Position numbers and translations under genes: made by a program. This document shows positions 1,144 to 30,826 of a DNA stretch of 64,000 nucleotides, in pieces. The notes beneath the pieces are model-generated. The model made no database searches. It was not told where the DNA came from and saw nothing but the letters and a program-made list of their open reading frames with translations. The stretch is from the NCBI GenBank assembly GCA_032718475.1, contig JAUCBJ010005083.1:1-64000 (forward strand), in the 5' to 3' direction. Source of the stretch: Nemertoderma westbladi (Eukaryota > Animalia > Xenacoelomorpha). How positions within the stretch are numbered: position 1 is the first letter of the stretch; each line of letters begins with the position of its first letter.

Positions 1144-2315
1144 TGTAAAGGCTTTTGCGTAATTAGCCGGTTATTTTCCCCGTAAAGTACTCTGTAGTTG
1201 GTTTAACAGGCATAAAAGGCCGTGTCCTTACTGTACTGGTGTTTTAGAGGACATAAAAGCCATTTCTTCTGTATGTGTACTTTAACGGACATAATTAGCA
1301 ATTCTATGACGCAATGCGCCAAATCCTCTGTAAACAGTGTAGCTACCATGACGACGGCTAACAGCTGATGCTGTACACGTGTAGCTTTTCTTTGTTCTCT
1401 GTTCCTTCTTTGTTCGGTCGACCAATCAGAGCGTTTTTTGCCTCTGTGTTAGAGATTGTATATAGAAACTCGTGGAGTTGAGTCAGTATGTGATTTTGTC
1501 CACAGCCTACAACACCGGCGTGGAACCTCCGTGTTTCAGTCTTTAGCTCAACATTAGTAGGCTTAATTATAGAACGTATATCCGTTATCTTAACTTAACT
1601 CACTCACTTAACATATCTCATACCAATTCTGCATTCATAACCATTCATACCTTGAACTTTGTACTGCTATTTACTGTCGGTTATTCATTATATTTGTTGA
1701 TGGAATATTATATTTGGAATACTGATAAACAATCAGACACCCCAATCTTCTTGATATACTAAAGGTTAGAGAGACCGGATACATATAACGATTGCGACTT
1801 ACATTAAGTGGTTTGAAGTGAATCTAATGCTATTTTATAGGCCCTACACGTATTGTCTGTTGTTCTCCTTATATGTGACTAAAATTAGTGAAGGTCGGCA
1901 GATTAGTGTGCAGTATTGTGTATGATCGTGATTGATAACGAAGCATCTCCTAAAGAATGCGCCATATACGTGAATCTATAGCCATCCCGCTGTGTCTAGT
2001 TTAAGTCATAACTCTGTTTATATATTTAAAGCGCCACGTCCTAAAGGAACTGTTAATATTTCCCGAAAGTGAATAATATTTGTCAGAGATTATATATATT
2101 ACGATCAGTCGAATAATACAGTAGGCCTACCCCGCAATACGGTTAGGCTTCCGAATCCAGTCTCCCGGGTATATCCAGCGGGTGAATGATCGCGCATAGA
2201 CTGGATTCGGCTAATGTAGTGTATCTAATACTTGTTATAGGCTAAAGACTATCTATCATCTAAAAGACATCCAAATTTGGCAGGTTAAACTGCTAAAGGT
2301 CTGAAAGCGCGAACA
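1144..2315 (+). repeat. 5' LTR of copy A (1172 bp)
   Basis: Starts TGTAAAGGC, ends GCGAACA; direct repeat of 29648-30826. Confidence 0.95.
1422..1487 (+). promoter_or_regulatory. Putative LTR core promoter (CCAAT 1422, TATATAG 1459, Inr-like TCAGT 1483)
   Basis: Motif order and spacing fit a Pol II core promoter. CCAAT and TCAGT are also in the B LTRs, but the TATA is not. Confidence 0.45.
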
Positions 2316-2327
2316 ATAACGGATATA
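2316..2327 (+). other. Non-tRNA primer-binding site of copy A (ATAACGGATATA), complementary to LTR 1577-1588
   Basis: Abuts the LTR end and lacks the TGG of tRNA PBSs. Exact reverse complement of TATATCCGTTAT at 1577-1588. Confidence 0.7.
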
Positions 2328-2591: not shown

Positions 2592-3172
2592 CAGATAATT
2601 TGTAGGCTGGACTGTTGTCTGACTGTTGTTAAGTCTGAAGGGACTGTAGTGTGTGTAGAGCATATGTCCGAAAAAGTACTAGTTAGGAAAGTAGGGGCTG
2701 CCAGTGCTGTGAGGTGAACCCCCTCAAAAGAATAAGTCGTACTACTCGGTTAGAACGCATACTAACTAACCATTTCGGAGTCTGCATATACTGTAGTTTA
2801 TTTAGGCTTGATAGTAGTCTGCCAGCGTTTGGTCTGTATTTTGTTTGTGTAGTTTGTACGGGTAGCGTAATATTTCTTATTTAGATAATTTGTAGGCTGG
2901 ATTTTGTCTGGCTGTTGTTAGGTCTTGAGAGATTTCGGTGTGTGTAGAGTGTATGTCCGATAAAGTGCCAGTTGGGAACGTAGGGGCTTCCAGAGCTGTG
3001 AGGTAAACCCCCTCGAAAGAATAAGTCGTCCCACTAGGTTAGGACGCATACTAACTAACCATTTCGGAGTCTGCATATACCGTAGTTTGCTTGGGCTTGA
3101 TAGTAGTCTGTCAGTATTTGGTCTGCATTTTGTTTGAGTAGTCTGTACGCGTAGCGTAATATTTATTATTCA
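2592..3172 (+). repeat. ~290-bp tandem duplication in the long 5' leader (equivalent in B at ~11511-12090)
   Basis: AGATAATTTGTAGGCTGG...GTAGCGTAATATT occurs twice in tandem in both copies. Confidence 0.85.
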
Positions 3173-4107
3173 GAGTTTATGCGATTATTCGCAACATTCA
3201 TTCCCCAAGTTTATTCCTGCAGTAATTGTGCTTGTTATATATACCGTTACAGTTAAACTAACCCCGGTACTACATCAGGGCTGCTTGGCGTAGGTAAAGA
3301 CTGGAGATTTTGTGCTTTGGTCACTCTGGCAGATACCGTGGTTCTTTTAGCTGTTCAAGTATTTTTAACTACTGATTATTTGTTGTATAAGTACTTGTAC
3401 CTAATTTAGGGTTTAGTGTACAGTGCTTTCCGAAGGCAATTAGTGTGTAGGCAGTATATTTGTGTTGTAAAGTGGTTAATAGGCACGTTGGTTCTGGTAG
3501 ACCGCGGTAATTAACTTCTAGGTAGGAACACTCCGTGATACATAACGTAGTACTTATAGCGATACGGCTATAAGTCGTCAGACGGTGGTATTTTTCTATC
3601 TGGACAACGCAGTATATTTACTACTACTTATTATTTTCAAATACCGTAGTACTCTGTCCGTTGTAATAACCAGATTTCTAACCCTTTGTTAGGCTGGTTT
3701 GTAGACTTCTTGTAAAATTACCCTAAAAATGTCGTAATTTTTTGTGTTTATTTAGAGATTGTAATCTCACCCCGAATTGTATGTAATTTGTAGCATTAAG
3801 TAACTTAGGTAAATTAGAATTATTTGTTTTAGTGTCCAACAAGTAGCACTCCACTGAGAGCGCACAGCTTCTGTGTAGTGACTCCCCCCAGAAATAATAA
3901 CATTTATTTCAAATATTGACAAAAAACCCATTATAACGGGTATATATATTATAAATCAACTCTAAGATTTATAAATAGTAGGCCTGCCATACAACAATTA
4001 GGTCTAAATATCAGTTGGACTACTGCTTAAATAACGGTAATAAAGTAAGTTAAAGTAACCAAGTAACCCCTTAAAATTCAGAAATTCAATTATTCTAAAA
4101 TAATTGA

Positions 4108-4490
4108 CATACCGGTATTCACGATAGGCTTATTATATTTATTTCTATAAATTTAGGCTGAAATCATACCGGTGTTCTGTAATTAATTCTAGTCTGTAAT
4201 TATACTTATATATATACATTATAAGTGTAAGCTGTATACCGGTATTCACGATAGGCTTATTATATTTATTTCTATAAATTTAGGCTGAAATCATACCGGT
4301 ATTCTGTAATTAATTCTAGTTAATAATTATACTTATATGTACTATAAGTGTAAGCTGCATACCGGTATTCACGATAGGCCTATTATATATTTATATATAT
4401 TTGTGCTGGAATTACATACCGGTATCCTGTGACAAACCTAGTCTGTAATAATACTTATATATATACTATAAGCATACCGGTATTCTAATA
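4108..4490 (+). repeat. Degenerate AT-rich leader repeats built around ATACCGGT
   Basis: ATACCGGTATTCACGATAGGC occurs three times about 128 bp apart. B has fewer copies (13045-13290). Confidence 0.75.
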
Positions 4491-4620: not shown

Positions 4621-7600
4621 ATGTCTGACACAAAGCAAAATCTGTCAGACAGTCTCCTAGATACAACCATATGTGACCTAGACAGGAGTGTGGAACGTGT
4701 TAGACCGAAGTTCAACTCACCTCCTACTGTAAGAAAGATCATTCCCCCAGTAGTAATATCAGAACCTAGGCTGGTCCAATACCGTAGGTCTATCATAGGC
4801 ACTAGAGCTTAGGTCAAGCGGGACCAAGAAGCAGCGGAACAACAACAACCCGCGAGCCAAGAACTTATTTCTCAACGGCCCGACAGCTCCAGTAGTGAGG
4901 ATACTGTAGAGCTGACACCCGAGCGCGGAGCAAAGATGACGGATGCGGTTTATTCGGATCCCCTTTTCATCCTTCCTGCAGCCGTACTCACTAGGTTATT
5001 GATTGCGGTGGAAGAACACCAGATCGATTGGGCGAGAAGTAAGCGATCGACTAAAGATAGTTATGCAGGATACACAAGGGAAGAACTGAAGTCTATTGTC
5101 GAGTCGCAATGGAACTTCCCCGGACCCGGACTCCCGTTTAATTTATCAGAAGCTGCCTGGGAAGATATACACAGGATGGGAGTAACCAAGGAAACCATCG
5201 ATCCAGCTGTGTGGAAGAGGTCCGCAGCAGGATACGTACAGGGATTCTTCAGCTCCATGGAGCGATTAGAAAAACAACTGTTTCAACAACCCCAAGGACC
5301 TCAAGAGCAGGGACAGCTGCTTTATCAAGTTAGAGAAAGAATTCTACGAATCAGGCTAATCTTATTGGCCTTTGAGGAGGCTTCTAAAAGAAGACAAGAC
5401 ACGTCGTTGCAAGTTGCCGTAAAGACTTGGTTTCAACGGGTGAGCCTCCAGGTGCAAGGAACGACTCAGTGGAAAGCCCAACTGGATGAGCGCTCAACCC
5501 ATGGAGAATCAACAGACGCTACTTTTTCCCAAGTGGAAAGTGAAGCGACGGCAGAGAAGCCGCATAAGAGGGATGCCATTGACATCTATCTGTCGGACTA
5601 TCAACGTTTTGTAGGAGATGAAGAGTTGAGGAGAAGACTAGAGGGGCTTAGCCCTAATAGTGAAGGAGCCCAGCATGTGTTGGACGCAATCGATGCGGAT
5701 AGGTTAGCTGCGAACCAAGCTAAATTCAATGAAAGCATCCGCATCGCTAAGGTTCAAGAAGAACAAGTAAAGAAAAAACGTATAGAAGACAGAAAGATAG
5801 CAGCAGCGGCAGCAGCAGTGGCAGAAGCAGAAAGAAAGGCGGCAGTGGCAGAGGCAGTGGCAGAGGCAAAAATAGCAGTGGCAGAAGCAGAACGGAGGGC
5901 ATCTGAAGAGACAACCCAACTAGAGTTGGAAAATCTTCAAGAGAAGCAAGACAACTTCAGTAAACAGTTAACAGCTAGTAATATGCAGATGATGAATAGA
6001 TCTACTCCCAAAAGACAAGGTTATACCTCATCTGAGGAAGGCGATACCACCGATCCTGAAGGCGGAGGAAATAGATCTCGTCTAAGTAGACGTAGAAGAA
6101 CATCTCACCATCACAAATTGCCTGATTTGCCCCCAGCTGTTAGAAGGCAACTAACTAACACAGATTTAGGTAGTACAGAACCCACAGACCAAATAATTAA
6201 AATAGAAAGACTCCCTACTATAGTAGATGAGCCTGAAATAATTAGGCCTGTTCTTGAAATCACCCCTTCGGTGATAGAGACACCTGTGCTCCCAGAACCC
6301 ACCTTTAAATTCCCTTTACACAGCACCAAATTATCTGTGCCTAGAGGAACAGCCCCTGAAACAGTGTCGGTCCTGGACTCCGAGCGAAATATAAAGGATA
6401 TATCGCCCGTAGTCCCTCGTCTGCCCGCTACGACGTTGGCGGATCCAGCTTCGGCAGTTGATTGGGTAGACGAGAGACGGCGGGGGATGGACATTCTCCT
6501 CGGAGAGAGGAAGGAGAATCGAGTGCGCTCCTCCCAACAGGTCCGAGAGTTAGAAGGGACTGTTCAACAGTTAAAGGGAACCGTAAAGGAAAGTAGGTTA
6601 GAGTTGCAAGAAGTGCAGCAAAGTATCGCGCTAGAACGCGATAAATTAGTAAATTTACAAAAGGGTATATCACCACCCTCTGTAACAATATGTCAACCCG
6701 TTAGGTCTGAAGTATCTCATGCGCAAGGTGTGGAGCCTACACGCATCTATACTGCTAGCGAAGTAGAAACTCCTATAGTAAACCCTATTAAGGGTAATTA
6801 TAGACTTGTTGATAGTGATATTCCCTATAGACCTGATCATAATCCGAGAAATTTATATACCGATAACTCGATATTAAATAACACGATGGCCCAAGAAAGT
6901 TTTACGCGTCAAATGGCTAGAACCGAAGCCCGCCAAGCGGTAAAGATGGGAGAGATAGTCAAGTTCAATGGAGATGAGATGAAATGGTTACCTTTTAATG
7001 AATATTACAAAGATAACATACAGAACTCTGTGCTATCTAATGGAGAGAAACTTAGATTCCTCATCGAGTGCTTGGAAGGATCTCCTAAGTTAATAGCATT
7101 AAAGTTTATTGGACATCCAGACGGATTAAGACAAGTTTGGGATACACTAAACATCAGGTATGGTAATAGTAATAACATAGCTAGGTATTTGTATGCAAAA
7201 TTAATGGCGCCCCGAAAGTTTCTTAGCAGCGGGATTATAGAGTTTTCCGATGAGATTTAGGAGATCTGTAGACAATTAGATTGGCTAGGTAAGTCTCATG
7301 AATACCAGAATTCTATGGTTGTAGGAGCCTTAGCATCTACTTTGCCCAAGGGTGGAGTAGGTACATGCTGGGACAAGAAAGTGTTATATATGATGGAACA
7401 ACAACGACGAGACCCTACCATGGCTGATCTCATGTCATTCTTAGATGGAGAAGTGAAATTACAGCTCCTAAGGCAGTCCAGAGAGAAGACACCGGAAAAC
7501 AAGGTAAGTGAGAAACCCGTTTCTAGGAGAAGGGTAATACCAGTATGTTATACAGACGACGGCGAAAGCCAGGCTTCTCAAGAGGAAGACAGCGGGAAAG

Positions 7601-9225
7601 ACACTGAAAGATCTTACTATGACAACAAAGCGACTAAGGACGTAAGTAAATTCAAGTCTCGAACCAATGACAGGAGAGAACAGGTAAGAAAAACTCCTCC
7701 TACGTCTCCCAAGAGAATTCAGGTGAGAAAGCCCGAAGAAAGAACGAGTGTGCACAATGTTATTCAAAATAAGGTAAGTAACATCAAACCGAAATGTGCG
7801 CTATGTGATGGGACCCACCGTTTGAATATGTGTGATAAATTCCTAAAGAAATCATTAAAGGATAGACGTGAAGTCATGTGGGATAAGCAGTTGTGTTATA
7901 ATTGCCTCAGAAAAGGACACCAACGGCGAACCTGTTACTCCGACGCAAGGTGTGCAAAGTGCAGCGCAAAACATAATATCTTGTTGCACACGGAATTCGA
8001 ACGAAACAGCCCGAGTCAGGTAAGTGAGTCCGAACTACATGTCCAATTCAGTGATGTGAACGACACTGACCAATATTCTGAGATGGAAGGATTCTATACG
8101 GACGAATTCTCCGACGAAAACGAATCCTGTTACCTGACAAATACCGCAGTGTATCGAGCACTTACGTATGAAAAGGACACCGACAGAGAGCTCCCCCTAA
8201 CTACTTCTGACAGACAACCATCTTGGAAAGCACCAACTTCCAATGTAGGAATCCGAGAATTTCCTGTAGTACAGTTAAGGGTCCATGGACCTACAAGGAG
8301 TTATATAGTGAACGCCCTCCTTGACTCCGGTAGCACAGGAACATTCATCGACAAAGAACTAGCCGAAGACATCTTTGCTGGACAACCCAAGTTCCGAACT
8401 AAGCTAAACATGTCAGGAATTATGCAGGTTTGGAAATCTACCGTAATAGCGGATTATTATGTAAGCGCGTTGTCCACCCCCCAGGATGAACTAGGAGAAC
8501 ACAGCATAAGGTCAGTAAAAATGGTAGCGATAAAGAACTTCGCGACCAGCCAAGTGGAACCTTATAACTGGGATGAGGACGATTTCACCCAGCAGCTTGA
8601 AATACCTAGATTCAACACCGATTACCCTGGAGTCCAAATACTCATCGGTCAAAATGCGCATGAAGTGCTCGAGACATTGGAGAAATGGCCTGCTCAACCG
8701 CAACCACTACAAGCTTATGCGGGAAGAACTAGAGTGAGTTGGTACTTTACTGGCCCTTCCCGTAGAACTCTCATGGAAAGATTACCGAAAGATCAGGTAT
8801 ATCAAGTAAGAGAATGGGAAGATGAGAGCAGTGAGTTAGACGATCCAACTGAGGGAAGACCATACTCCTCAGATAATGACGACATCAACTCCAATGTAGA
8901 TCAATGGAGACATTGCCCCGAGACGATTAATCTAGCCGACATCGCCTCCAGAGGAGCAACTCCTCAAGAACTGACAGATACTCCAGACCGGTTAGGTGGA
9001 CCCGACTTCCTAAGTAAAGAAGATGAATGGCCTCCTCATCTTACCCTGGCGAAGATTAGACAGGCCAAGGGAGCGGAGAAAGTAACACAACCACTCAATC
9101 GCCCCGCTGGTCGTTTATGTTTACTGGAAAGAGACCGAAAACTGTCCGGAAACTATGGAAGGCAAGATACTCTTCCCACGACCACCTCCCTAATCCAACA
9201 AATATCTAGGGACTCCATAACGTAA
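4621..9225 (+). pseudogene. Copy A gag-protease polyprotein with two in-frame stops and two in-frame deletions removing RT, most of RNase H and integrase
   Basis: ORFs 4621, 4936 and 7315 share one frame. TAG at 4810 and 7258 where B has CAG. Contains CALC/CYNC/CAKC knuckles and ALLDSGS, then jumps to DQWRHCP...IASRG and to the integrase tail LNRPAGRLCLLE. Confidence 0.9.
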
Positions 9226-10068
9226 CAACATACGGAGTGGGTGTGTGACTATATTATTTTATATTTATTTTATTATTTTATATTATGTATGTATTATTAT
9301 GTAATTTTATTATAATCGTTTTCTTTAATTTTATTTAGTAGAATGTTATTTTAGCGATTATTTAGTAGATTAGTGCAATATATATTCGCGTTTATTACTT
9401 AATTACTTATATATTATATATTTAGTGCGACGGCGAGAAATAATTCTTTTTCTCTTTCCTTACTGTCCGTATTACATTACAAATACGTAACTACAGTAAG
9501 ATGAAATATCCGTACTTATTAAAGTACAATAGAGCTCCTACTATATTTAAGTATTATTGGTAGGCAAAGTATTAGGAATGCAAAGTTCAGATCCTCGTGT
9601 CTCGGCTAAACCAAGTTCTGGGTAGACCTTGGAAACGACTTGCCTCTTCACACTGACATTGCTTCGTGCGATATTGTTCTCATACCGTATATTAAATAAT
9701 ACATATAGTAGCGTGATGTCCCTTTAACAGTAGCGTATAACGCAAAATAAATCTGTTAAACCCTTTGACCATCTGCAATTCTAGTCGATTAAGATATCGC
9801 GGCACCCACCGATATACTTGAAAGACAAAATTCTAGAATCAGTGGTTAACGTCCCCAGGCAAGTTCTGGAATAAACTGGTGCCCATCCTAAATATTAATT
9901 ATTAATATTTACAAAATCTGTCAAATATCAGATCCTTTAAAATTCTAGTCGATTAAGATATCGTAGCACTTACCGATACTCTTAAAAAGACAAAATTCCT
10001 GGAATCAAGGATCCCAGTCCCCAGACACGTTCTGGAATAAAATTGTGTCTATTTAACATTAAATAATA

Positions 10069-11231
10069 TGTAAAAGCTTTTGCGTAATTAACCGGTTATT
10101 TTCCCTTAAAGTACTCTGTAGTTGGTTTGCCAGGCATAAAAAGGCCGTGTCCTTGCTGTACTGGTGTTTTAGAGGACATAAAAGTCATTTCTTCTGTATT
10201 TGTACTTTAGAGGACATAATCCGCAATCTCGTGATGCGATAAGCTAGATACTCTTGAAAACAGTGTCGCTACCATGACGACGGCTAACAGCTGATATTGC
10301 CACGTCGACATTTCTTTGTTTCTTTGTTCTCTCGTTGTTCGGTTGACCAATCAGAGCGTTTTTTGTCTCTGTGTTGGAGGTGGATACAGAACTCAGTAGT
10401 TCAGTGTTATGTTTTTGTCCAGAGCCTAAGAACATCGGCTTTTGGCACCTCCGTATATCAGCATTCTTTAGCTTTACATTAGTAGGCTTAATTATAGAAC
10501 GTATATCTGTTATCTAACCATACCAATGCAATTCGAGTTAACATACCATATCTATCCATAAATTACTAATATTACTGCTTTTACTGTCGGTTATTCATTA
10601 TATTGGTTGATGAAATATTATATCGGAATACTGATCAATAGTCAGATACCCCACCTTCTTGATATACTAAAGGTTAGAGAGACCGGTTACAGATAAACGA
10701 TTGCGACCTATGTTAAGTGGTTTGAAGTGAATCTAATGCTGTTTCATAGGCCCGACATAAATTGTATGTTGCTCTCTTCATACGTGACTAAATTTAGTGA
10801 AGGTCGGCAGATTAGTGTGCAGTATTGTGCAGCATTGTGTATGATTGTAACTGATAACAAAGCATCTCCTAAAGAATGCGCCATATACGTAAATCTATAG
10901 CCTTTTCGTTGTGTCTAGTTTAAGTCATAACTCTGTTTACATATTTAGAGCGCCACGTCCTAAAGGAACTGTTAATATTTCCCGAAAGTGAACAATATTT
11001 GTCAGAGATTATATATTACGATCAGTCGAATAATACGGTAGGCTTACACCATCAATCATTAAGTTCCGAATTCAGTCTCCAGGGTATATCCAGCGGGTGA
11101 ATGATTGCGCATAGACTGGCTTCGGCTAATGTAGTGTATCAAATACTCGTCATAAGCTAAAGAATATATATCATCTAAAAGACATCCTAATTTGGCAGGT
11201 TAAACTGTCAAAGGTCTTAAAAGCGCAAACA
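10069..11231 (+). repeat. 5' LTR of copy B
   Basis: TGTAAAAGC...GCAAACA; differs from 26087-27249 at only a handful of positions. Confidence 0.96.
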
Positions 11232-11242
11232 ATAACAGATAT
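11232..11242 (+). other. Non-tRNA primer-binding site of copy B (ATAACAGATAT), complementary to LTR 10503-10513
   Basis: Exact reverse complement of ATATCTGTTAT at 10503-10513, with a compensatory change relative to copy A. Confidence 0.7.
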
Positions 11243-13424
11243 TGCTTCTGGATTGCGGTGTAAGCAATCTAGTCGAAAGTACCGGTCGACCGGTAACCAG
11301 TAGGCCTGACTGCCTGATCATCCGGACCGGTACCTACAGTAGTACAGGTACAGCAGTATTATTCGATTGTGGTATTGTATACCGGTAGGCTGTTTAAGAG
11401 ATTAGGGACTGTACACCCCTTGTTTCTTTTGGAGCTTACTTATTTCTGTCAGTTTTATTTATTTGTAGGCCAGTATTGAGCAGAAGGCATGTAAGCCTGC
11501 TCAGATTGTACAGATAATTTGTAGGCTTGACTGTTGTCTAACTGTTGTTAAGTCTGAACGGATTGCAGTGTGTGTAGAGCATCTGTCCGATGAAGTGCTA
11601 GTTAGGAAAGTAGGGGCTTCAAGTGCTGTGAGGTAAACCCCCTGTGAAAGAATAAGTCGTACTACTGGGTTAGAACGCATACTAACTAATCATTTCGGAG
11701 TCTGCATATACTGTAGTGTATTTGGGCTTGATAGTAGTCTGCCATCGTTTAGTCTGTACTTTGTTTGTGTAGTCTGTACGGGTAGCGTATAATTTTATTT
11801 AGATAATTTGTAGGCTGGATAGTTGTCTGGCTGTTGTTGGGTTTGAGGAAATTTCGGTGTGTGTAGAGCATCTGTCCGATAAAGTGCTAAGTTAGGAAAG
11901 TAGGGGCTTCAAGTGCTGTGAGGTAAACCCCCTGTGAAAGAATAAGTCGTACTACTGGGTTAGAACGCATACTAACTAATCATTTCGGAGTCTGCATATA
12001 CCGTAGTTTGTTTAGGCTTGATAGTAGTCTGTCAGTATTTGGTCTGCATTTTGTTTGAATAGTCTGTACGCGTAGCGTAATATTTATTATTCAGAGTTTA
12101 TGCGATTATTCGCAACATTCATATCCCCAAGTTTATTCCTACAGTAATTGTGTTTGTTATACATACCGTTATAGTTAAACTAACCCCGGTACTACATCAG
12201 GGCTGCTCGGCGTAGGTAAAGACTGGTGATTTTGTGCACTGGTCACTCCAGCAGATGCCGTGGTTCTTTTAGCTATTCAAGTATTTTTAACTACTAATTA
12301 TTTGTTGTACAAGTACTTGTACCTAATTTAGGGTTTAGTGTACAGTACTTTCCGAAGGTGATTAGTGTGTAGGCAGTATATTTGTGTTGTAAAGTGGTTA
12401 ATAGGCACGTTGGTTCTGGTAGACCGCGGTAATTAATCTCTAGGTAGGAACACTCCGTGATACATAACGTAGTACCTATAGCGATACGGTTATAGGTCGT
12501 CAGGCGGTGGTATTTTCCTATCTGGACAACGCAGTATATTTACTACTACTTATTATTTTCAAATACCGTAGTAACCTGTCCGTTGTAATAACCAGATATT
12601 CTAACCCTTTGTTAGGCTGGTTAGTAGACTTCTTGTAAAATTACCCTAAAAATTTGTATTTGTGTATTTGCAATTAAATTTTTGTGTTTATTTAGAGATT
12701 GTAATCTCAACCCGAATTGTACGTAATTTGTAGTATTAAGTAACTTAGGTAAATTAGAATTATTTGTTTTAGTGTCTAACAAGTAGCACTCCACTGAGAG
12801 CGCACAGCTTATGTGTAGTGACTCCCCCAGAAATAATAACATTTATTTCAAACATTGACAAAACCCATTAAACGGGTATATATATATTATAAATCAACTC
12901 AAACGATTTATAAATAGTAGGCCTGCCATATAACAATTAGGTCTCAATATCAGTTGGACTACTGCTTAAATAACGGCAATAAAGTAAGTTAAAGTAACCA
13001 AGTAACCCTTAAAATTCAGAAATTCAATTATTTAAAATAATTGATATACCGGTATTTACAATAGGCTTATTATCTTTATTTTCATAAACTTAGGCTGAAA
13101 TCATACCGGTGTTCTGTAATTAATTCTAGTTAATAATTATACTTATATATACTATAAGTGTAAACTGCATACCGGTATCCACGATAGGCCTATTATATAT
13201 TTATATATATTTGTGCTAAAATTATACCGGTATTTTGTGAAAAACCTAGTCTGTAATAATACTTATATATACCATAAGCATACCGGTATTCTAACATTAT
13301 ATATATATCACGCTACACTGAGTAGCAGTATCGGTAATTAATTACTAGGCTAGCAGTTAATGCTGAATTACTAGACTTGCTTGGACTGTAATATAGCAGT
13401 AGGCATTCAACTGTGCAAACAAAC

Positions 13425-16205
13425 ATGTCTGATACTAAGCAGAACCTGTCAGACAGTTTATTAGATGTAACTATCTGCAACTCAGATAAGGGTGTAGAAC
13501 CGTCTACACCTAAGTTCAGTTCACCTCCCACTGTGAAGAAGGTCATCCCTCCAGTAGTAATAACAGAACCTAGGCTGGTCCAACATCGTAGGTCTATCAT
13601 AGGCACTCGAGCTCAGGTCAAGCGGGACCAAGAAGCAGCGGAACAGCAACAACCCGCGAGCCAAGAACTTATTTCTCAGCGGCCCGACAGCTCCAGTAGT
13701 GAAGATACTGTAGAGCTGACACCCGAGCGCGGAGCAAGGATGACGGATGCGGTTTATTCGGATCCCCTTCTCATCCTTCCTGCAGCCGTACTCACTAGGT
13801 TATTGATCGTGGTGGAAGAACACCAGATCGATTGGGCGAGAAGTAAGCGATCAACTAAAGATAGTTATGAGGGATACACAAGGGAAGAACTGAAGTCTAT
13901 GGTCGAGTCGCAATGGAACTTCCCCAGACCCGGACTCCCGTTTGATTTATCAGAAGCTGCCTGGGAAGACATACACCGGATGGGAGTAGCCAAGGAAACC
14001 ATCGATCCAGCTGTGTGGAAGAGGTCCGCAGCCGGATACGCACAGGGATTCTTCAGCTCTATGGAGCGAGTAAAAGAACAACTGTTTCAACAACCTCAAG
14101 GACCTCAAGAGCAGGGACAACTGCTTTATCAAGTTAGAGAAAGAATTCTGCGAATTAGGCTAATCTTATCGGCCTTTGAGGAGGCTTCTAAAAGAAGACA
14201 AGACACGTCGTTGCAAGTTGCCGTAAAGACTTGGTTTCAACGGGTGAGTCTCCAGGTTCAAGGAACAGCTCAGTGGAAAGCTCAGCTGGAGGAGCGCTCA
14301 ACCCATGGAGAATCAACAGACGCTACTTTTTCCCAAGTGGAAAGTGAAGCGACGGCAGAGAAACCGCATAAGAGGGATGCCATTGACATCTATCTGTCAG
14401 ACTATTAGCGTTTTTTGGGAGATGAAGAGTTGAGGAGAAGGCTAGATGGACTTAGCCCTAATAGTGAAGGAGCCCAGCGTGTGTTGGACGCAATTGATGT
14501 GGATAGGTTAGCGGCGAACCAAGCTAAATTCGATGAACAACTCCGCATCGCTAGAGACCAAGAAGAAAGGGTGAAGAAAAAACGCATAGAAGACAGAAAG
14601 AAAGCAGCAGTAGCAGCTGCAGAAGCCGAAAGGAAAGCAGCCGAAGAGGAAAGTAAAGCAGCCGAAATGGAAAGAAAAGCGGCAGCTGCAGAGGCAGAAG
14701 CGGAAAGAAAAGCGGCAGCGGCAGAGGCAGAAGCGAAAAGAAAAGCGGCAGCGGCAGAGGCAGAAGCGAAAAGAAAAGCAGCCGAAATGGAAAGAAAAGC
14801 GGCAAGGGCAGCGGCAGAAGCGGAGCGGATAGCGGCTGAAGAGATTGCCCAATTAGAATTGGAAAATATTCAGGAGAATCAAGACTGCCTAAATAAACAG
14901 TTAACAGCTAGTAATATGCAGATGATGAATCGATCTACTCCCAAAAGACAGGGATATACATCATCTGAGGAAGGCGATACCACCGATACTGAAGGCAAAG
15001 GAAATAGATCTCACCTAAGCAGACGTAAAAGAACATCCCACCGTCAGAAATTGCCTGATTTGCCTCCAGCTGTTAGAAGGCAACTAAATAACACCAACTT
15101 AGGTAGTACAGAACCCACAGACCAAATAATTACAATAGAAAGACTCCCTACTATAGTAGATGAGCCTGAAATAATTAGGCCTGTTCCCGAAGCCACCCTT
15201 TCGGTGGTAGAGACACCTGTACTCCCTGAATCTACCTCTAAATTCCCTTTGCACAGTACCAAGCTACCTGTGCCCAGCAGAACAGCCCATGAGACAGTTC
15301 ATGCCCTGGACTCCGAGCGAAATATTCATGATTTGTCGCCCGTTGTCCCTCGTCCGCCCGCTACAACGTTGGCGAATCCCGCTTCGGCGGTCGAATGGGT
15401 GGATGAGAGACGACGGGGGATGGATCTCCTGCTCGGACAGATGCAGGAGACCGTTCAGCAATTCAAGGGCACAGTAAGGGAAAGTAGGCTAGAGTTGCAA
15501 GAAGTGCAGCAAAGTATCGCGCTAGAATGCGATAAATTAGTAAATACACAAAAGGGTATACCACCACCCCCTGTAACAATGTGTCAACCTGTTAGGTCTG
15601 AAGTATCTCATGCGCAAGGTGTGGAGCCTACACGCATCTATACTGCTAGCGAAGTAGAAACTCCTATAGTGAACCCTATTAAGGGTAATTATAGACCTGT
15701 TGATAATGATATTCCCTATAGACCGGATCATAATCCGAGAAATTTATATACCGATAACTCGATATTAAATAACACGATGGCCCAAGAAAGTTTTACGCGT
15801 CAAATGGCTAGAACCGAAGCCCGGCAAGCTGTAAAGGTGGGAGAGATCGTCAAGTTCAATGGAGATGAGATGAAATGGTTACCTTTTAATGAATATTACA
15901 AAGATAACATACAGAACTCTGTGCTATCTAATGGAGAGAAACTTAGATTCCTCATCGAGTGCTTGGAAGGATCTCCCAAGTTAATGGCGTTAAAGTTTAT
16001 TGGACATCCAGACGGATTAAGACAAGTTTGGGATACACTAAACATCAGGTATGGTAATAGGAATAACATAGCTGGGTATTTGTATGCAAAGTTGGTAGCG
16101 CCCTGAAAGTTTATTAGCAGCGGAATTATAGAGTTTTCCGATGAAATTCAGGAGATCTGCAGACAATTAGATTGGCTAGGTAAGTCTCATGAGTATCAGA
16201 ATGCT
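13425..16205 (+). pseudogene. Copy B gag N-terminal part, interrupted by TAG (14406) and TGA (16104)
   Basis: Same frame as pol from ATG 13425. Copy A has CAA and CGA at these codons. Includes an Ala/Glu/Lys coiled-coil repeat and the BEL gag motif KFNGD..W..F. Confidence 0.88.
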
Positions 16206-19200
16206 ATGGTTATTAGAGCAGTGGCTTCTACTTTACCGAAGGGCGGAGTAGGTACACGCTGGGATAAGAAAGTGTTATATATGATGGAACAACAACGACG
16301 AGACCCTACCATGGCTGATCTCATGTCATTCCTAGATGGAGAAGTGAAATTACAGCTCCTAAAACTGTCCAGAGAGAAGACACCGGAAAACAAGGTAAGT
16401 GAAAAACCCGTCTCTAGGAGAAAGGTAACACCAGAGTGTTATACAGATGACGGCGAAAGCCAGACTTCTCAAGGAGAAGATAGCGGGAAAGACACTGACA
16501 GATCTTATTACGTAAATAAAATGCCTAAAGATCAGGTAAGTAAATTCAAGTCTCGAACCAATGACAGGAGAGAACAGGTAAGAAAAACTCCTCCTACGTC
16601 TCCCAAGAGAATTCAGGTGAGAAAGCCCGAAGAAAAAACAAGTGTACACAATGTTACTCAGAGTAAGGTGAGTAACATCAAACCGAAATGTGCGCTATGT
16701 GATGGGACCCATCGCTTAAATATGTGTGATGAATTTCTAAAGAAATCATTAACTGAGAGACGTGAAGTCATGTGGGATAAGCGGTTGTGTTATAATTGCC
16801 TCAGACAAGGACACCAACGGCGAACCTGTTACTCTGACACAAGATGTGCCAAGTGCGGTGCGAAACATCATATCTTGTTGCACACTGAATTCGAGCGAAA
16901 TAGTCCGAGTCAGGTAAGTGATTCCGAACTACATGTCCAATTCAGTGATGTGAACGACACTGATCAATCTGAGATGGAAGGATTCTATACAGACGAGTTC
17001 TCCGACGAAAACGAATCCTGTTACATGATAAATACCACAGTGTATCGAGCACTTACTTATGAAAAGGATACGGACAGCGACCTTACCCTAACTACTTCTG
17101 GTCAACCACCATTTTGGAAAGCGCCAACTTCCAATGTAGGGATTAGAGAATTTCCTGTGGTACAGGTAAGGGTCCACGGACCAAAAAGGAGTTATGTAGT
17201 GAACGCCCTCCTTGACTCCGGTAGTACAGGAACATTCATCGACAAAGAGCTAGCCGAAGACATATTCGCTGGACAACCCAAGTTCCGAACTAAGCTAAAC
17301 ATGTCAGGAATTATGCAAGTTTGGAAATCCACAGTAACAGCGGATTATTATGTAGGTGCGTTGTCCACCCCCCAGGACGAACTAGGAGAACATAGCATAA
17401 GGTCAGTGAAAATGGTGGCTATAAAGAACTTCGCTACTACTCAAGCAGACCTTTATAATTGGGACGAGGATGAGAGCATCCAACATCTTAAGATACCTCG
17501 ATTCCAGACTAATTATCCTGGAGTGCAAATACTCATCGGCCAAAACGCGCATGAGGCGCTCGAGACATTGGAGAAACGGCCTGCTCAACCGCAGCCACTA
17601 CAAACCTATGCGGTAAGAACTAGAGTAGGTTGGTACTTTACTGGCCCTTCCCGTAGAACTCTCATGGAAAGATTACCGAAAGATCAGGTATATCAAGCGC
17701 GAGAATGGGAAGTTGAGAACAGTGAGTTCGACGATCCAACTGAGGGAACTCCATACTCCTCAGACAACGACGATATACATCAACTCTTCGATGAGGAGAA
17801 TGCCACCGATCTCCTTAAGGAAAGCGAGACTTGGCAAAATCAAGTGAACTTATGTCAACTCCTTCTCCCATCCGAGCGAGACGACTATAACGACGAGCTT
17901 AATGACGTCATTGAACGTTATAATGCCAAGACTCGGGATGAACACGCCGTGAGATTCTTTACTCAAGAGGTCGTAGAGCCCAACTCCTACGATAAGGCCC
18001 TATCGGTGGAGGAAGAAAGAGCCAAGCAGATCCAAGCGACAACTACTCGTTTTCTTAAAGATCAAGGTAGGTATGAGATCGGACTTCCTTTCCGAAAGCG
18101 AGAACCAAAGTTCATTAACAACAGACCTTTGGCGGAGAAAAGAATTGCTCAACTACATCGACGCCTTACGGCAAATTCTTCAGCTAAAGAAATGTATCAA
18201 ACGCAGTTGAAGAAGTTTATTAGCAAGGGATATGCGGAGCTAGTACCGGAAGAAACACCCATAACTGAGAGAACGTATTATTTAACTCACCATTACGTTC
18301 CCAAACCCGGTAAACCCCATGAAGTACGAGTGGTGTTTGACGGTTCCGCCCTTTATATGGGCCAATCTCTTAATTCTGAATTGTTACCCGGACCCAACTT
18401 ACTTCAATCCTTGTTGGGAATACTATTAAGATTAAGACAATACTCCATTGCTTTCGCCTCAGATATAGAAGGCATGTTCTTACAAGTCAAAGCGCTGGAT
18501 AGGGATCGGGATAGTCTACGATTTTTGTGGTGGCCTGAAGGAGACCTCAATAAGAAACCTGTGGAGTACTGGATGACCATCCAAGCCTTTGGGATAATCT
18601 CGAGTCCTTCAAACGCCTGTTCCGTGGTGCGCAACACTGCGGATGACAACCGAGACGCCTTCTCTAAAGAAGTGATCGACAATATCAAACGAGACATCTA
18701 CATGGACGATAATCTGAAGTCCCTTCTATCAGTAGAAGAAGCCATTGAGGTCGCTAAAGGAACGGTAGAATGCTTAAAGAAAGGAGGATTTCGATTAACT
18801 AAATTCACTAGCAACTCCCGTGAGTTTCTGGAGTCGATCCCGGTAGAAGATCGAGGAACAAAAGACCTAGATCTAATAAAGGATGATCTCCCAGAAACTA
18901 AGACCCTTGGTTTGAAATGGGACACAGAAAGAGATATCCTGTTTTTCCAATTAAAACAGCGAGATAATCCAGTTCGGACTAAACGGATTTGTTTAAGTAT
19001 CCTGAGCACTTATTTCGATCCATTGGGATTTATTAGCCCAGTTATATTGATTGCTCGGAGTTTAGTACAACAAATGTGGCTTGAAAACCACTCATGGGAC
19101 GATCCACTTAAGGGAGAATTATTAAAGAAGTGGATGAAATGGGAAGATTCTCTACCAGCCATCGAAAACTTTATAATTTTTTTCATTTATAATTTTTATC

Positions 19201-21611
19201 ATTTACAAAGTTCATATTTTGGTCATGTTCTCCCTACGTATTCATATCAACTCCATGTGTTTGGAGACGCCAGCGATATGGGAATCGGTATAGTAGCCTA
19301 CCTAAGGGTGGAAACTCCGGACGGAATTAAAGTCGCCTTGGTTACCTCTAAGGCATTAATAAACAACAAGTTGAAAGTTCCTCGAGCGGAGTTAAAAGCG
19401 GCTCTATACGCTACAGCCATCGGCCGGAATGTAACAGAACAGATCGACTATCCCCTGGAGAAAACTGTCTATTGGACCGACGCTTTACTCGTGTTGGAGT
19501 ATATAACCAATGAAGTCTGTCAGTTCAGCGTCTTCGTTACCAACAGAGTAGCTATTATACTCAGTCGCACGACGATGGATCAATGGAGACATTGCCCCGG
19601 AACGATTAATCCAGCGGACATCGCTTCCAGGGGAGCAACTCCACAAGAACTGGTAGATACTCCAGACTGGTTAGGTGGACCCGACTTCCTCTACAAAGAA
19701 GAAGAAGAATGGCCTCCTCATCTTACTACAGCAGAAATTAGACAGGCCAAGGGAGCGGAGAAAGTCAAGCCTAAAACTCAGGCGAGTAAATCGAAGTTAT
19801 TCAAACCCACAGTAGATCTGTCTGTACTACATACTTCCGGAGACGACGCTTTGGATCAGAAACCCACAGCCACAAATAAACCCATTGTGGAAATCCGTGA
19901 TAAGGATTGGAAATCTGGTATACCAGACGTCTCGCAAGGACTCTCACCTCTTCTGCAGAGAGCGATGCATCACTACAGTTCCTGGAATCGGCTTTGTAAG
20001 GCCGTTACATATTTAAAGAGATGTTTTCACCATCACTACTCTGGGATGAAAACAAAGGGTGATACCGCTCCAATCACATCAGTGCAGGTCCATGTTATTA
20101 AAGACCTTCCTAAATATAAGGTACCCGACAAGTTTCTGAAGGAGAAGATCAGTTATCAGGAGCATGAAGAAACCAACAAACAGATGCTGAGACTCTTACA
20201 ATGCTATGAAGATTCCGATAAGTATTTCCTGTTGTTGAGAAATCCACAGATGCGCTTAAGGGATCGTTTCTCTAGCACAATGATAGATGGGTTGATACGT
20301 GTTGGAGGAAGGTTAACGAATGCCCCATTATCCTTTGATACTAAGTTCCCCATACTCATTAGAAATCTTGAAATACAAGTCAAGATGATTGTAGATGTTC
20401 ACAGTAAGCTTTATCATGCTGGTAGAGAACGAGTTCTTAGCGAAATTCGAACTCGCTATTATTTTTATAAACCCCGTAGAGCTCTGAACCAAGTTCTTAG
20501 GAACTGTATACCCTGTAGGAAAGCATTCAGTAGGCCTTTAACACAGCGAGAGGCAGAATTACCTAGGGAACGACTAAGCTTTTATGAACCACCCTTTACT
20601 AATACCGGTGTGGATTTATTTGGCCCTATTGAAGTATATCGTGCTAGGACTATAGTCAAGAGATGGTGTGTAATCTTTGTTTGTATGACTTGTAGAGCCA
20701 TCCATCTCGATATGGTGAACGATTTATCTACCAACAGCTTTCTATTAAGCTTACGACGACAGATCGCTCGCTTTGGCACTAGTAACACGATGAGATCTGA
20801 TAAGGGAACAAACTTCATTGGTGCCAACAATGAAATTAAAGCTTACGTCAAAGATTGGAACCAAAGACAGGTGGATGACCAACTACGAGTAACAGCGTCT
20901 AGTTGGACCTTCAACGCCGCCGACGCCCCTTGGTGGGGAGGAAGTTGGGAGAGATTAATAAGAAGTGTGAAGACGGCATTTCATTTTATAGTGCCTTGCC
21001 GCGCTTATCTCACCGACGAACTTTTGCGGACGTTAATGGAAGAAATCGCCGCCTATCTCAACGAGAGACCGCTTATGCCAGTCTCATCGAGTCCCGATTC
21101 CCTGGAAGCGCTAACACCCGCGCACTTCCTACTGAAGAAACCTGTAGCCATGCTCTCACAATCGGAAATCACAGACGGAGACGAATACTGCCGACAAACT
21201 TGGCAACTCATGCAGTTGTTATCCCGTCGTTTCGCTGACCATTTCGAAAAACATTATCTGCCCACGCTACAACTTCGAACTAAGTGGTTTGCGCAGCAAG
21301 GAAACGTTAGCGCTGGAGACATGGTTCTTATTGTGGATGTAGATCTTCCACGTAAGAGGTGGCAGACAGGTCGTATCATCGAGACTCACATCTCGGATGA
21401 CGGTTTGGTGCGATCGGTAGAACTCGTCGTCATGCGACGTAACTTCAAGAAACCGGGAATTGTCTTCGAGACGCAGCAGCTCAATCGCCCAGTGGGACGT
21501 TTATGTTTACTGGAAAGAGACAGAGAACTCTCCGGAAACTATGGGAGACAAGATACTCTTCCCACGACCACCTCCCTAATCCAACAAACATCTAGGGACT
21601 CCCCAACTTAA
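16206..21611 (+). CDS. BEL/Pao gag C-terminus and pol: zinc knuckles, aspartic protease, RT, RNase H, integrase
   Basis: 1801-aa open frame with CALC/CYNC/CAKC knuckles, ALLDSGS, RVVFDGS, DIEGMFLQV, YMDD, VFGDAS, PRAEL, NPADIASRG, HHCC, GVDLFGP, SDKGTNF and WERLIRSVK, in PR-RT-RH-IN order. Confidence 0.97.
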   Translation: MVIRAVASTLPKGGVGTRWDKKVLYMMEQQRRDPTMADLMSFLDGEVKLQLLKLSREKTPENKVSEKPVSRRKVTPECYTDDGESQTSQGEDSGKDTDRSYYVNKMPKDQVSKFKSRTNDRREQVRKTPPTSPKRIQVRKPEEKTSVHNVTQSKVSNIKPKCALCDGTHRLNMCDEFLKKSLTERREVMWDKRLCYNCLRQGHQRRTCYSDTRCAKCGAKHHILLHTEFERNSPSQVSDSELHVQFSDVNDTDQSEMEGFYTDEFSDENESCYMINTTVYRALTYEKDTDSDLTLTTSGQPPFWKAPTSNVGIREFPVVQVRVHGPKRSYVVNALLDSGSTGTFIDKELAEDIFAGQPKFRTKLNMSGIMQVWKSTVTADYYVGALSTPQDELGEHSIRSVKMVAIKNFATTQADLYNWDEDESIQHLKIPRFQTNYPGVQILIGQNAHEALETLEKRPAQPQPLQTYAVRTRVGWYFTGPSRRTLMERLPKDQVYQAREWEVENSEFDDPTEGTPYSSDNDDIHQLFDEENATDLLKESETWQNQVNLCQLLLPSERDDYNDELNDVIERYNAKTRDEHAVRFFTQEVVEPNSYDKALSVEEERAKQIQATTTRFLKDQGRYEIGLPFRKREPKFINNRPLAEKRIAQLHRRLTANSSAKEMYQTQLKKFISKGYAELVPEETPITERTYYLTHHYVPKPGKPHEVRVVFDGSALYMGQSLNSELLPGPNLLQSLLGILLRLRQYSIAFASDIEGMFLQVKALDRDRDSLRFLWWPEGDLNKKPVEYWMTIQAFGIISSPSNACSVVRNTADDNRDAFSKEVIDNIKRDIYMDDNLKSLLSVEEAIEVAKGTVECLKKGGFRLTKFTSNSREFLESIPVEDRGTKDLDLIKDDLPETKTLGLKWDTERDILFFQLKQRDNPVRTKRICLSILSTYFDPLGFISPVILIARSLVQQMWLENHSWDDPLKGELLKKWMKWEDSLPAIENFIIFFIYNFYHLQSSYFGHVLPTYSYQLHVFGDASDMGIGIVAYLRVETPDGIKVALVTSKALINNKLKVPRAELKAALYATAIGRNVTEQIDYPLEKTVYWTDALLVLEYITNEVCQFSVFVTNRVAIILSRTTMDQWRHCPGTINPADIASRGATPQELVDTPDWLGGPDFLYKEEEEWPPHLTTAEIRQAKGAEKVKPKTQASKSKLFKPTVDLSVLHTSGDDALDQKPTATNKPIVEIRDKDWKSGIPDVSQGLSPLLQRAMHHYSSWNRLCKAVTYLKRCFHHHYSGMKTKGDTAPITSVQVHVIKDLPKYKVPDKFLKEKISYQEHEETNKQMLRLLQCYEDSDKYFLLLRNPQMRLRDRFSSTMIDGLIRVGGRLTNAPLSFDTKFPILIRNLEIQVKMIVDVHSKLYHAGRERVLSEIRTRYYFYKPRRALNQVLRNCIPCRKAFSRPLTQREAELPRERLSFYEPPFTNTGVDLFGPIEVYRARTIVKRWCVIFVCMTCRAIHLDMVNDLSTNSFLLSLRRQIARFGTSNTMRSDKGTNFIGANNEIKAYVKDWNQRQVDDQLRVTASSWTFNAADAPWWGGSWERLIRSVKTAFHFIVPCRAYLTDELLRTLMEEIAAYLNERPLMPVSSSPDSLEALTPAHFLLKKPVAMLSQSEITDGDEYCRQTWQLMQLLSRRFADHFEKHYLPTLQLRTKWFAQQGNVSAGDMVLIVDVDLPRKRWQTGRIIETHISDDGLVRSVELVVMRRNFKKPGIVFETQQLNRPVGRLCLLERDRELSGNYGRQDTLPTTTSLIQQTSRDSPT

Positions 21612-22749
21612 AAACGGCTGGAGTGGGTGTGTGACCATATTATTTTATATTTGTATTTGTTTTATTTTATATTTATGTATGTATTATTATGTAATTTTAT
21701 TATAATCGTTTTCTTTAATTTTATTTAGTAGAATGTTATTTTAGTGATTATTTAGTAGATTAGTGCAATATATTAGTGTTTATTACGTACGTAATTACTT
21801 ATAATATATATTTAGTGCGACGGCGAGAAATAATTATTTTTCTCTTTCCTTACTGTCCGTATCATATTATAAATACGTGACTACAGTAAAATGAAATATC
21901 CGTACTTATTAAAGTACAATAAAGCCACTACTATATTCAAGTATTATTGGTAGGCAGAGTATTAGGAATGCAAAGTTCAGATCCTCGTGTCTCGGCTAAA
22001 CCAAGCTCTGGGTAGACCTTGGAAACGACTTGCCTCTTCACACTGACATTGCTTCGTGCGATATTGCTCTCATACCGTATATTAAATAATACATATAGTA
22101 GCGTGATGTCCCTTTAACAGTAGCGTATAACGCAAAATAAATCTGTTAAACCCTTTGACCATCTGTAATTCTAGTCGATTAAGATATCGCGGCACCCACC
22201 GATATACTTGAAAGACAAATTTCTAGAATCAATGGTTAACGTCCCCAGACATGTTCTGGAATAAACTGGTGCCCATCCTAAATATTAAGTATTAATATTT
22301 ACAAAAATCTGTCAAATATCAGATCCTTTAAAATTCTAGTCGATTAAGATATCGTAGCACTTACCGATACTCTTAAAAGGACAAAATTCCTAGAATCAAG
22401 GATCCCAGTCCCCAGACACGTTCTGGAATAAAATTGTGTCTATTTAACATTAAATAATAAAATTTACGGGAATAAATTTAAATTCAGATATTTCAATGAA
22501 TTTAATAATTGTCATTTTGTACAATTTATAACATTCCCAAAATTCCATTAATTAATAGATCATGGGAGCGGAGATTCACTCTATTAAGTGTATTTGTGTG
22601 CGAGAATCTCCAATGTATAGTCAATAGCCGATAAAATTCATAGAATCATGTATAAAGGGGATATTGACCATTAAAGAATTACTATTAAATAGCATCCCAG
22701 ATCTGTATGCATGAGAATTACCCTAATTCTACCGCTAGCTTTCCATAAT

Positions 22750-26008: not shown

Positions 26009-26078
26009 CTGTTTAGAGTATTTTTATATTTTAGAAACTGTGATTTGTTATATTTTATAGACTTAAATCCCATTTTCT

Positions 26079-26086
26079 GGGAGCGG
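26079..26086 (+). other. Polypurine tract GGGAGCGG (also 29640-29647 for copy A)
   Basis: Purine-rich run directly before both 3' LTRs, preceded by TTTTCT. Confidence 0.75.
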
Positions 26087-27249
26087 TGTAAAAGCTTTTG
26101 CGTAATTAACCGGTTATTTTCCCTTAAAGTACTCTGTAGTTGGTTTGCCAGGCATAAAAAGGCCGTGTCCTTGCTGTACTGGTGTTTTAGAGGACATAAA
26201 AGTCATTTCTTCTGTATTTGTACTTTAGAGGACATAATCCGCAATCTCGTGACGCGATAAGCTAGATACTCTTGAAAACAGTGTCGCTACCATGACGACG
26301 GCTAACAGCTGATATTGCCACGTCGACATTTCTTTGTTTCTTTGTTCTCTCGTTGTTCGGTTGACCAATCAGAGCGTTTTTTGTCTCTGTGTTGAAGGTG
26401 GATACAGAACTCAGTAGTTCAGTGTTATGTTTTTGTCCAGAGCCTAAGAACATCGGCTTTTGGCACCTCCGTATATCAGCATTCTTTAGCTTTACATTAG
26501 TAGGCTTAATTATAGAACGTATATCTGTTATCTAACCATACCAATGCAATTCGAGTTAACATACCATATCTATCCATAAATTACTAATATTACTGCTTTT
26601 ACTGTCGGTTATTCATTATATTGGTTGATGAAATATTATATTGGAATACTGATCAATAGTCAGATACCCCACCTTCTTGATATACTAAAGGTTAGAGAGA
26701 CCGGTTACAGATAAACGATTGCGACCTATGTTAAGTGGTTTGAAGTGAATCTAATGCTGTTTCATAGGCCCGACATAAATTGTATGTTGCTCTCTTCATA
26801 CGTGACTAAATTTAGTGAAGGTCGGCAGATTAGTGTGCAGTATTGTGCAGCATTGTGTATGATTGTAACTGATAACAAAGCATCTCCTAAAGAATGCGCC
26901 ATATACGTAAATCTATAGCCTTTTCGTTGTGTCTAGTTTAAGTCATAACTCTGTTTACATATTTAGAGCGCCACGTCCTAAAGGAACTGTTAATATTTCC
27001 CGAAAGTGAATAATATTTGTCAGAGTATATATATTACGATCAGTCGAATAATACGGTAGGCTTACACCATCAATCATTAAGTTCCGAATTGTGTCTCCCG
27101 GGTATATCCAGCGGGTGAATGATTGCGCATAGACTGGCTTCGGCTAATGTAGTGTATCAAATACTCGTCATAAGCTAAAGAATATATATCATCTAAAAGA
27201 CATCCTAATTTGGCAGGTTAAACTGTCAAAGGTCTTAAAAGCGCAAACA
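26087..27249 (+). repeat. 3' LTR of copy B
   Basis: Direct repeat of 10069-11231, followed by the TSD TAATA. Confidence 0.96.
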
Positions 27250-29569: not shown

Positions 29570-29647
29570 CTGTTTAGAGTATTTTTATATTTTAGAAACT
29601 GTGATTTGTTATATTTTATAGACTTAAATCCCATTTTCTGGGAGCGG

Positions 29648-30826
29648 TGTAAAGGCTTTTGCGTAATTAGCCGGTTATTTTCCCCGTAAAGTACTCTGTA
29701 GTTGGTTTAACAGGCATAAAAGGCCGTGTCCTTACTGTACTGTTGTTTTAGAGGACATAAAAGCCATTTCTTCTGTATGTGTACTTTAGCGGACATGATT
29801 AGCAATTCTATGACGCAATACGCCGGATCCTCTTGAAACAGTGTAGCTACCATGACGACGGCTAACAGCTGATATTGCCACGTGGAACATCTCTTTGTTC
29901 TTTGTTCCTCTCTTTGTTCGGTCGACCAATCAGAGCGTTTTTTGCCTCTGTGTTGGAGATTGTATATAGAAACTCGTGGAGTTGAGTCAGTATGTGATTT
30001 TGTCCACAGCCTACAACACCGGCGTGGAACCTCCGTGTTTCAGTCTTTAGCTCAACATTAGTAGGCTTAATTATAGAACGTATATCCGTTATCTTACATC
30101 ATACTCACTTAACATATCTCATACCAATTCTGCATTCATAACCATTCATACCTTAAACTTTGTACTGCTATTTACTGTCGGTTATTCATTATATTTGTTG
30201 ATGGAATATTATATTTGGAATACTGATAAACAATCAGACACCCCAATCTTCTTGATATACTAAAGGTTAGAGAGACCGGATACATATAACGATTGCGACT
30301 TACATTAAGTGGTTTGAAGTGAATCTAATGCTATTTTATAGGCCCTACACGTATTGTCTGTTGTTCTCCTTATATGTGACTAAAATTAGTGAAGGTCGGC
30401 AGATTAGTGTGCAGCATTGTGCAGTATTGTGTATGATCGTGATTGATAACGAAGCATCTCCTAAAGAATGCGCCATATACGTGAATCTATAGCCATCCCG
30501 TTGTGTCTAGTTTAAGTCATAACTCTGTTTATATATTTAGAGCGCCACGTCCTAAAGGAACTGTTAATATTTCCCGAAAGTGAATAATATTTGTCAGAGA
30601 TTATATATATTACGATCAGTCGAATAATACAGTAGGCCTACCCCGCAATACGGTTAGGCTCCCGAATCCAGTCTCCCGGGTATATCCAGCGGGTGAATGA
30701 TCGCGCATAGACTGGTTTCGGCTAATGTAGTGTATCAAATACTTGTCATAGGCTAAAGACTATCTATCATCTAAAAGACATCCAAATTTGGCAGGTTAAA
30801 CTGCTAAAGGTCTGAAAGCGCGAACA
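29648..30826 (+). repeat. 3' LTR of copy A (1179 bp)
   Basis: Direct repeat of 1144-2315 with clustered differences. Confidence 0.95.

Follow-up and report, generated by a model that had tools for sequence, protein, structure and literature searches.

Candidate self-priming by an 11-nt LTR segment in nested BEL/Pao retrotransposons of Nemertoderma westbladi and their relatives

The stretch of DNA analysed here, a window of 64 kb from Nemertoderma westbladi (JAUCBJ010005083.1), contains two nested LTR elements, A (1144-30826) and B (10069-27249), of which B is 17.2 kb long and sits within the 3' region of A. Features are on the plus strand unless stated otherwise. The 5' LTR of A (1144..2315, 1172 bp) and its 3' LTR (29648..30826) are identical at 1140/1168 positions (97.6%), those of B (10069..11231, 1163 bp, and 26087..27249) at 1154/1163 (99.2%), and all four begin with TG and end with CA. 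A is flanked by the target site duplication (TSD) GGGGG (1139-1143 and 30827-30831) and was inserted in a 23-bp satellite array; the TSD of B is TAATA (10064..10068 and 27250-27254). Polypurine tracts (PPT) lie at 29640..29647 in A and at 26079..26086 in B, the latter adjoining the 3' LTR. The two copies are ~86% identical to each other.

The gag-pol of A (4621..9225) is broken, with in-frame stops at 4810 and 7258 and with reverse transcriptase (RT) and integrase deleted. The gag-pol of B is a single frame (13425..21611, in-frame stops at 14406 and 16104) with DUF1759, protease, RT (YMDD at 18699), Peptidase_A17/RNase H, integrase and DUF5641 domains. Pfam matches were obtained for DUF1759, Peptidase_A17 (5.5e-31), Integrase_H2C2 and DUF5641, the RNase H acidic motifs were found in B, and the PR-RT-RH-IN motif order was confirmed as that of a BEL/Pao-type Gag-Pol. 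A search for homologues returned 546 at E<=1e-20, with PF05380 in all 120 listed; the best are 37-43% identical over RT-RNase H, and those with names are mostly from marine invertebrates and fish. Assigned by these proteins, the window elements belong to BEL/Pao (Belpaoviridae). Their BEL/Pao domains, and the lack of any chromodomain match in Pfam, place them outside the Tf1/sushi group of Ty3/gypsy chromoviruses.

Between pol and the 3' LTR of B there is also a 486-codon open frame (24548-26008) with Cys/His clusters and a basic tail, which has no Pfam or sequence homologue and gave weak zinc-knuckle Atlas leads, all below 0.9; only the end of this frame (29407-29647) is present in A. The 3' region holds another orphan coding stretch (23219-23650 and 28182-28871), which is related between A and B at its start and whose 229-codon frame has no Pfam match; the 3' accessory content differs between the two elements. 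A tandem duplication of 289-290 bp and a repeat of 127 bp lie in the 5' UTR of 2.3 kb (2592-3174, 4108-4472, 11511-12095). Satellite arrays of 23, 74, 50 and 68 bp occupy 1-1143, 30826-31384, 45135-48909, 50319-51017 and 61161-61773, and a 206-codon frame on the minus strand (63206-63826), with a repeat partner at 36643-37219, gave a weak DUF6451 match under the curated cut-off.

The original prediction held that neither copy has a TGG-type primer binding site (PBS) for a tRNA after its 5' LTR, and we confirmed that no TGG occurs within 9 nt of either 5' LTR end. The PBS of A (2316..2326), which abuts the CA of the LTR, is complementary to a segment of that LTR at 1578..1588, the candidate self-primer, with a predicted cut after 1588 by analogy with Tf1. 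The predicted 12-nt match is exact in A, where 2316-2327 is the reverse complement of 1577-1588, but it is not common to both copies. In B the PBS (11232..11242) is the exact reverse complement of 11 nt at 10503..10513, with A in place of copy A's G in the PBS and T in place of A's C in the candidate primer. Because the 12th pair of A, formed by T1577, is broken in B, the common core is 11 nt (1578-1588). The motif, ATATC[C/T]GTTAT, occurs in the window at positions 1578, 10503, 26521 and 30082 only, and its complement at 2316 and 11232 only; each 3' LTR carries the version of its own copy (26521-26531 in B, 30082-30092 in A), as had been claimed. The predicted geometry also holds, in that pairing ends precisely at the LTR-terminal CA in both copies. 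Beyond the primer the window elements leave 718-727 nt of LTR, compared with 44-203 nt in the relatives described below.

Such complementarity is rare in the parts of the window used as controls. A match of at least 11 nt to the LTR of A was found at 5/12,470 start positions between 31.5 and 44 kb and one of at least 12 nt at none, with 0/2,170 start positions within the 5' UTR, and the 3' flanks of the two copies, used as controls, gave 5 and 7 nt (7 for A). Both copies also pass the test applied to the TAR lineage, which asks for at least 10 nt complementary to the element's own 5' LTR located 0-5 nt from the LTR end (here 11-12 nt at offset 0). The compensatory swap in B, presented originally as support by covariation, is real, but its weight is limited: it is a single event, with a probability of ~1 in 11 by chance given one change per 11-mer, and the matched change alone is weak to modest evidence. 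Moreover, the B primer still pairs with the A PBS via G.U (-9.8 kcal/mol, versus -10.5), although the reverse swap falls to -5.8, so that the A/B swap alone is compatible with one host RNA carrying U at that place.

Stronger grounds for self-priming come from related elements. A profile of 30 proteins was used to fetch 99 loci, of which 46 show a direct repeat enclosing the coding region; flanking sequence comes after the 3' copy in 20 of these. We dropped L032, L087 and L091 (no CA/TA end) and L097 (a repeat without a clear end), leaving 16 relatives, ~30-43% identical over RT-RNase H, whose LTR ends were set by the LTR pair without reference to pairing. We accepted both contiguous matches and matches interrupted by a GT-AG intron whose acceptor is pyrimidine-rich; the acceptor threshold was eased from 10 to 8 pyrimidines, which added L015, and the nulls use the eased rule. 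Searches with a 20-nt LTR pattern gave no match in viral or genome contig collections, nor did single-protein scans give any, and the protein profile found none in viral contigs. Loci L080-L097 are BEL/Pao elements, several with LTRs, that lie inside bacterial genome bins and are most likely animal host DNA.

Fifteen of the 16 relatives match their own LTR over 10-15 nt, beginning 0-4 nt from the LTR end. In 13 of them the match appears only once a GT-AG intron is removed (76-451 nt; the donor is mostly GTAAG or GTGAG), and in two (L036 and L064) it is contiguous, as in the window. By comparison, 3/298 cross-family null pairs reach 10 nt and none 11, and the 3'-flank controls reach at most 6 nt. 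The remaining relative, L096, has TGG at +4 and no self-match, and L065 has TGG at +1 plus a 10-nt split match only. The letters of primer and PBS differ in nearly every family (L021 and L023 being one family), each PBS matching its own LTR, which puts the original inference of self-priming on a firmer footing than the A/B swap. Covariation of the two sites was likewise borne out among relatives: in L082 and L084, which are close, two of the three exon-1 primer bases differ and the PBSs follow. The split primers of these two span 1378-1726 (L082) and 1353-1814 (L084) over a GT-AG intron of 338 or 451 nt; its interior is rearranged, and both ends and the PBS remain matched. A second tier, made up of 15 loci in which the LTR start alone was fixed, was not counted, since 12 reach at least 11 nt but so do 35/206 null pairs. 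A boundary-free scan covering every locus gave too much noise for a count, and a search for symmetry between PPT-LTR and LTR-PBS spacing did not establish one.

In a quick tree built from 46 rows, the window element falls with the self-matching loci and away from L096 and L098 (SH-aLRT 100); its branch is long (1.75) and has no resolved sister, so that transfer from the relatives to the window rests on resemblance. Contiguous forms are scattered among split ones in this tree, which may point to repeated intron loss. Upstream of the primer in the window we found no splice donor kept in A and B, as a spliced primer would need, and the window family is most simply read as an intron-less form.

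We also compared the candidate primers of 15 families, the window included. The match is 11 nt long in eight, 12 in three, 10 in two, 13 in one and 15 in one, a peak at the same length as that of Tf1, and the primer ends in A-pyrimidine in 12/15 families against a background of 12.5%. A poly(A) hexamer lies 0-97 nt beyond the primer end in 14/15 relatives, so that an R region remains for strand transfer; neither window LTR contains AATAAA or ATTAAA. At the other end, pyrimidine-purine is found at the primer start in 4/15 families only and a TATA-like site 25-32 nt upstream of it in 1/15 relatives. In all 17 positive elements the helix begins 0-4 nt from the LTR end, and there is no other PBS there. 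Taking the window and its relatives together, we consider it likely that A and B self-prime with an 11-nt piece of their own RNA, freed by RNase H as in Tf1.

Three other readings of the helix, each improbable in our judgement, deserve discussion. The primer might be the 3' end of the element RNA, or of a short LTR transcript stopping at the motif, with no RNase H cut and a U5 of 727 nt. Consistent with this improbable arrangement, the window LTRs have no canonical poly(A) hexamer after the motif, an A/T-rich block just upstream is kept in A and B (20/20 at 1560-1579), and a primer acting in trans would sidestep the long loop. However, canonical hexamers are likewise absent upstream of 1588, the 3' end would be blocked by a poly(A) tail, and in 14/15 relatives the hexamer comes after, not before, the primer end.

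It is also unlikely that these elements are primed by a small RNA of the host, such as a tRNA fragment, with the LTR match being either a secondary structure or a primer copy that was captured. tRNAs end in CCA, and without a TGG the 3' end of a mature tRNA cannot pair; the 64-kb window contains no tRNA gene. Both versions of the PBS would pair with a host RNA carrying U at the variable position (-9.8 and -10.5 kcal/mol), half-tRNA priming is known in Ty1/copia (PMC6317226, available text), and Belpaoviridae are described as tRNA-primed by the ICTV (PMC8742986). In the relatives, however, PBSs vary by family and track the LTR of the same element (in 13 cases over a splice joint), which largely excludes a single host RNA.

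Less probable still, the helix may be real but regulatory, serving packaging, dimer formation or a translation switch, with priming by another route. Long-range leader helices are common in LTR elements, and the present data show no cleavage; against this stand the start of the helix 0-4 nt from the LTR end in all positives without another PBS, and the 11-nt peak and A-pyrimidine end, which fit a primer defined by an enzyme. Chance complementarity in an A/T-rich LTR is strongly disfavoured and close to negligible, since, although the A/B covariation is one event and copies 86% identical are not independent, the match falls at a fixed position, against a chance rate of 5/12,470, and recurs in 15/16 relatives against 3/298 null pairs.

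Returning to self-priming by a freed piece of the element's own RNA, we considered where transcription might start. A candidate promoter (1422..1490) comprises a CCAAT box at 1422 in A and B, a TATA-like sequence at 1459 in A only and TCAGT at 1483. A start near 1485-1490 is suggested by CCAAT at -155 (both copies) and TATA at -118 (A only), but a T|A initiator at 1577/1578 together with folding suggests a start at 1578: the minimum-energy fold shows the helix in 3/6 folds starting at the primer and in 0/6 starting ~90 nt upstream (near 1485 or 10410). The proposal that the TATA at 1459 marks the start, which would put the primer ~90 nt inside the RNA, is thus unproven for the window family, as the TATA is degenerate in B and the folds favour a start at the primer, but at clade level an internal primer is favoured, because the primer start lacks an initiator or TATA spacing. 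The predicted helices (-12.0 and -10.5 kcal/mol) are weak and span 727 nt. No flanking helix of the Tf1 type, as in the three-helix pretzel surrounding the PBS, was common to A and B in 12 folds, the duplexes there being weak (-6.0 and -7.9 kcal/mol); whole-region folding was no better than that of shuffles (z -0.99), and additional pairing on the upstream side of the primer did not reach significance in A or B (p 0.08 and 0.41) or in most relatives.

Just after the primer lies a G-poor, highly variable spacer (1589..1660, 2 G in 72 nt). We aligned contigs from four sequencing runs (8,783, 2,207, 146 and 63), of which X1 may be the sample that the window came from, to 1380-2460. Contigs follow the window to about 1590, then carry different letters until they align again at 1664-1674 (joints in sets X1, X3 and X4), indicating that the block ending with the primer is kept and that free replacement affects the G-poor stretch behind it. 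The comparison of A and B fits this pattern, as the two are identical at 20/20 positions in 1560-1579 and at 8/20 in 1600-1619. Among the 40 listed of 254 substitution rows from contigs on 1380-2460, none falls in the motif or PBS, which in itself proves nothing. Downstream of the primer an intron-like stretch (1765-1840) is kept in A and B, with an AAG|GTTAGA donor, a CTAAT branch-like site and a TAG acceptor. Splicing from the 5' copy would be expected to remove it within a single round of replication, which is at odds with its retention; contig set X5, RNA by guess only, showed no joint there.

The steps that we infer are pairing in the RNA, an RNase H cut following 1588, elongation by RT and a PBS rewritten from the primer; they would proceed as follows. 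Pol II would start in the 5' LTR, at or upstream of 1578, and 1578-1588 would fold onto 2316-2326 with 727 nt of R-U5 looped out. RNase H would cut after 1588 to give a 3'-OH, from which RT would copy U5-R back to 1589 and then jump to the 3' LTR. Plus-strand synthesis would later copy the primer and so rewrite the PBS, whereby both sites would change together. If the primer is internal, the copied part must be limited to 11 nt, most simply perhaps by a second cut. In most relatives the same primer would arise once an intron in the LTR had been spliced out. A joint reading, which we offer tentatively and hold to be possible rather than probable, is that a broad aquatic branch of BEL/Pao swapped tRNA priming for an 11-nt primer cut from the interior of the leader, unlike the capped end used by Tf1; that the primer is mostly spliced from two LTR exons, only the spliced 5' copy priming; and that the window family is an intron-less derivative priming over a 727-nt loop.

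The Tf1 primer is 11 bases long and RNase H cuts between bases 11 and 12 (PMC7175516, available text); about half of Tf1 cDNAs carry a copied PBS, a precedent for rewriting of the PBS from the primer (PMC11042837, available text). The only self-priming groups named in the available text of the papers we found are Tf1/sushi, Tcn1 and the TAR copia lineage (PMC7175516, PMC4600332, PMC6317226, bioRxiv 10.1101/2022.12.06.519325, PMC5341516, PMC11042837), and the accessible parts of PMC6934838, PMC13524379, PMC8220671, PMC3601003 and PMC3118150 name no further group. The words 'PBS' and 'tRNA' are absent from the main text of two BEL/Pao surveys (PMC3118150, PMC554778). We found no paper on BEL/Pao self-priming or on spliced primers in a search of mainly open-access papers, and because of this limited scope the novelty of BEL/Pao self-priming is graded as probable.

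Self-priming has been demonstrated in Tf1 (Ty3/gypsy) and predicted in a single plant lineage of Ty1/copia; BEL/Pao would be the third superfamily. If true, this would likely represent an independent origin, the ICTV description of Belpaoviridae as tRNA-primed would need revision, and the failure of PBS-based annotation to find many aquatic elements would be explained. Such elements would presumably be freed from control by tRNA fragments, and, through the split primers of the relatives, initiation of reverse transcription would be coupled directly to splicing. The contiguous form in the window, with its fixed predicted cut at 1588/1589, is the simplest case for mapping of RNA ends.

In their general organization the window elements resemble Belpaoviridae (Semotivirus), with LTRs of ~1.2 kb, a 5-bp TSD, a PPT, one gag-pol frame in the order PR-RT-RH-IN, and DUF1759, Peptidase_A17 and DUF5641. 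The ICTV profile, which agrees with the premise that BEL/Pao elements are tRNA-primed, gives this family an 18-nt PBS for tRNA-Arg or tRNA-Gly and genomes of 4.2-10 kb, and describes its replication as poorly understood (PMC8742986); unlike that description, the window elements lack a tRNA PBS, B is 17.2 kb long and there are orphan ORFs in the 3' region. They share with the TAR lineage of plant Ty1/copia (Houba, Osr-1) and with Tcn1 chromoviruses a prediction of self-priming by the same sequence test, of at least 10 nt complementary to the LTR 0-5 nt after the 5' LTR; those elements differ in belonging to other superfamilies, and split primers are not mentioned for them in the available text (PMC6317226). 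In mechanism the window elements would resemble Tf1/Tf2 of Schizosaccharomyces pombe, Tj1 and Tf1/sushi, which likewise have no tRNA PBS and have an 11-nt PBS complementary to a segment of the 5' LTR (PMC7175516, PMC4600332, PMC11042837, available text). As originally suggested, the Tf1 PBS begins with ATAAC, as it does here (PMC11042837, available text). Tf1/sushi are Ty3/gypsy chromoviruses and the window elements, by their BEL/Pao domains, belong to another superfamily; these 5 shared nucleotides are best read as convergence on an A-pyrimidine primer end.
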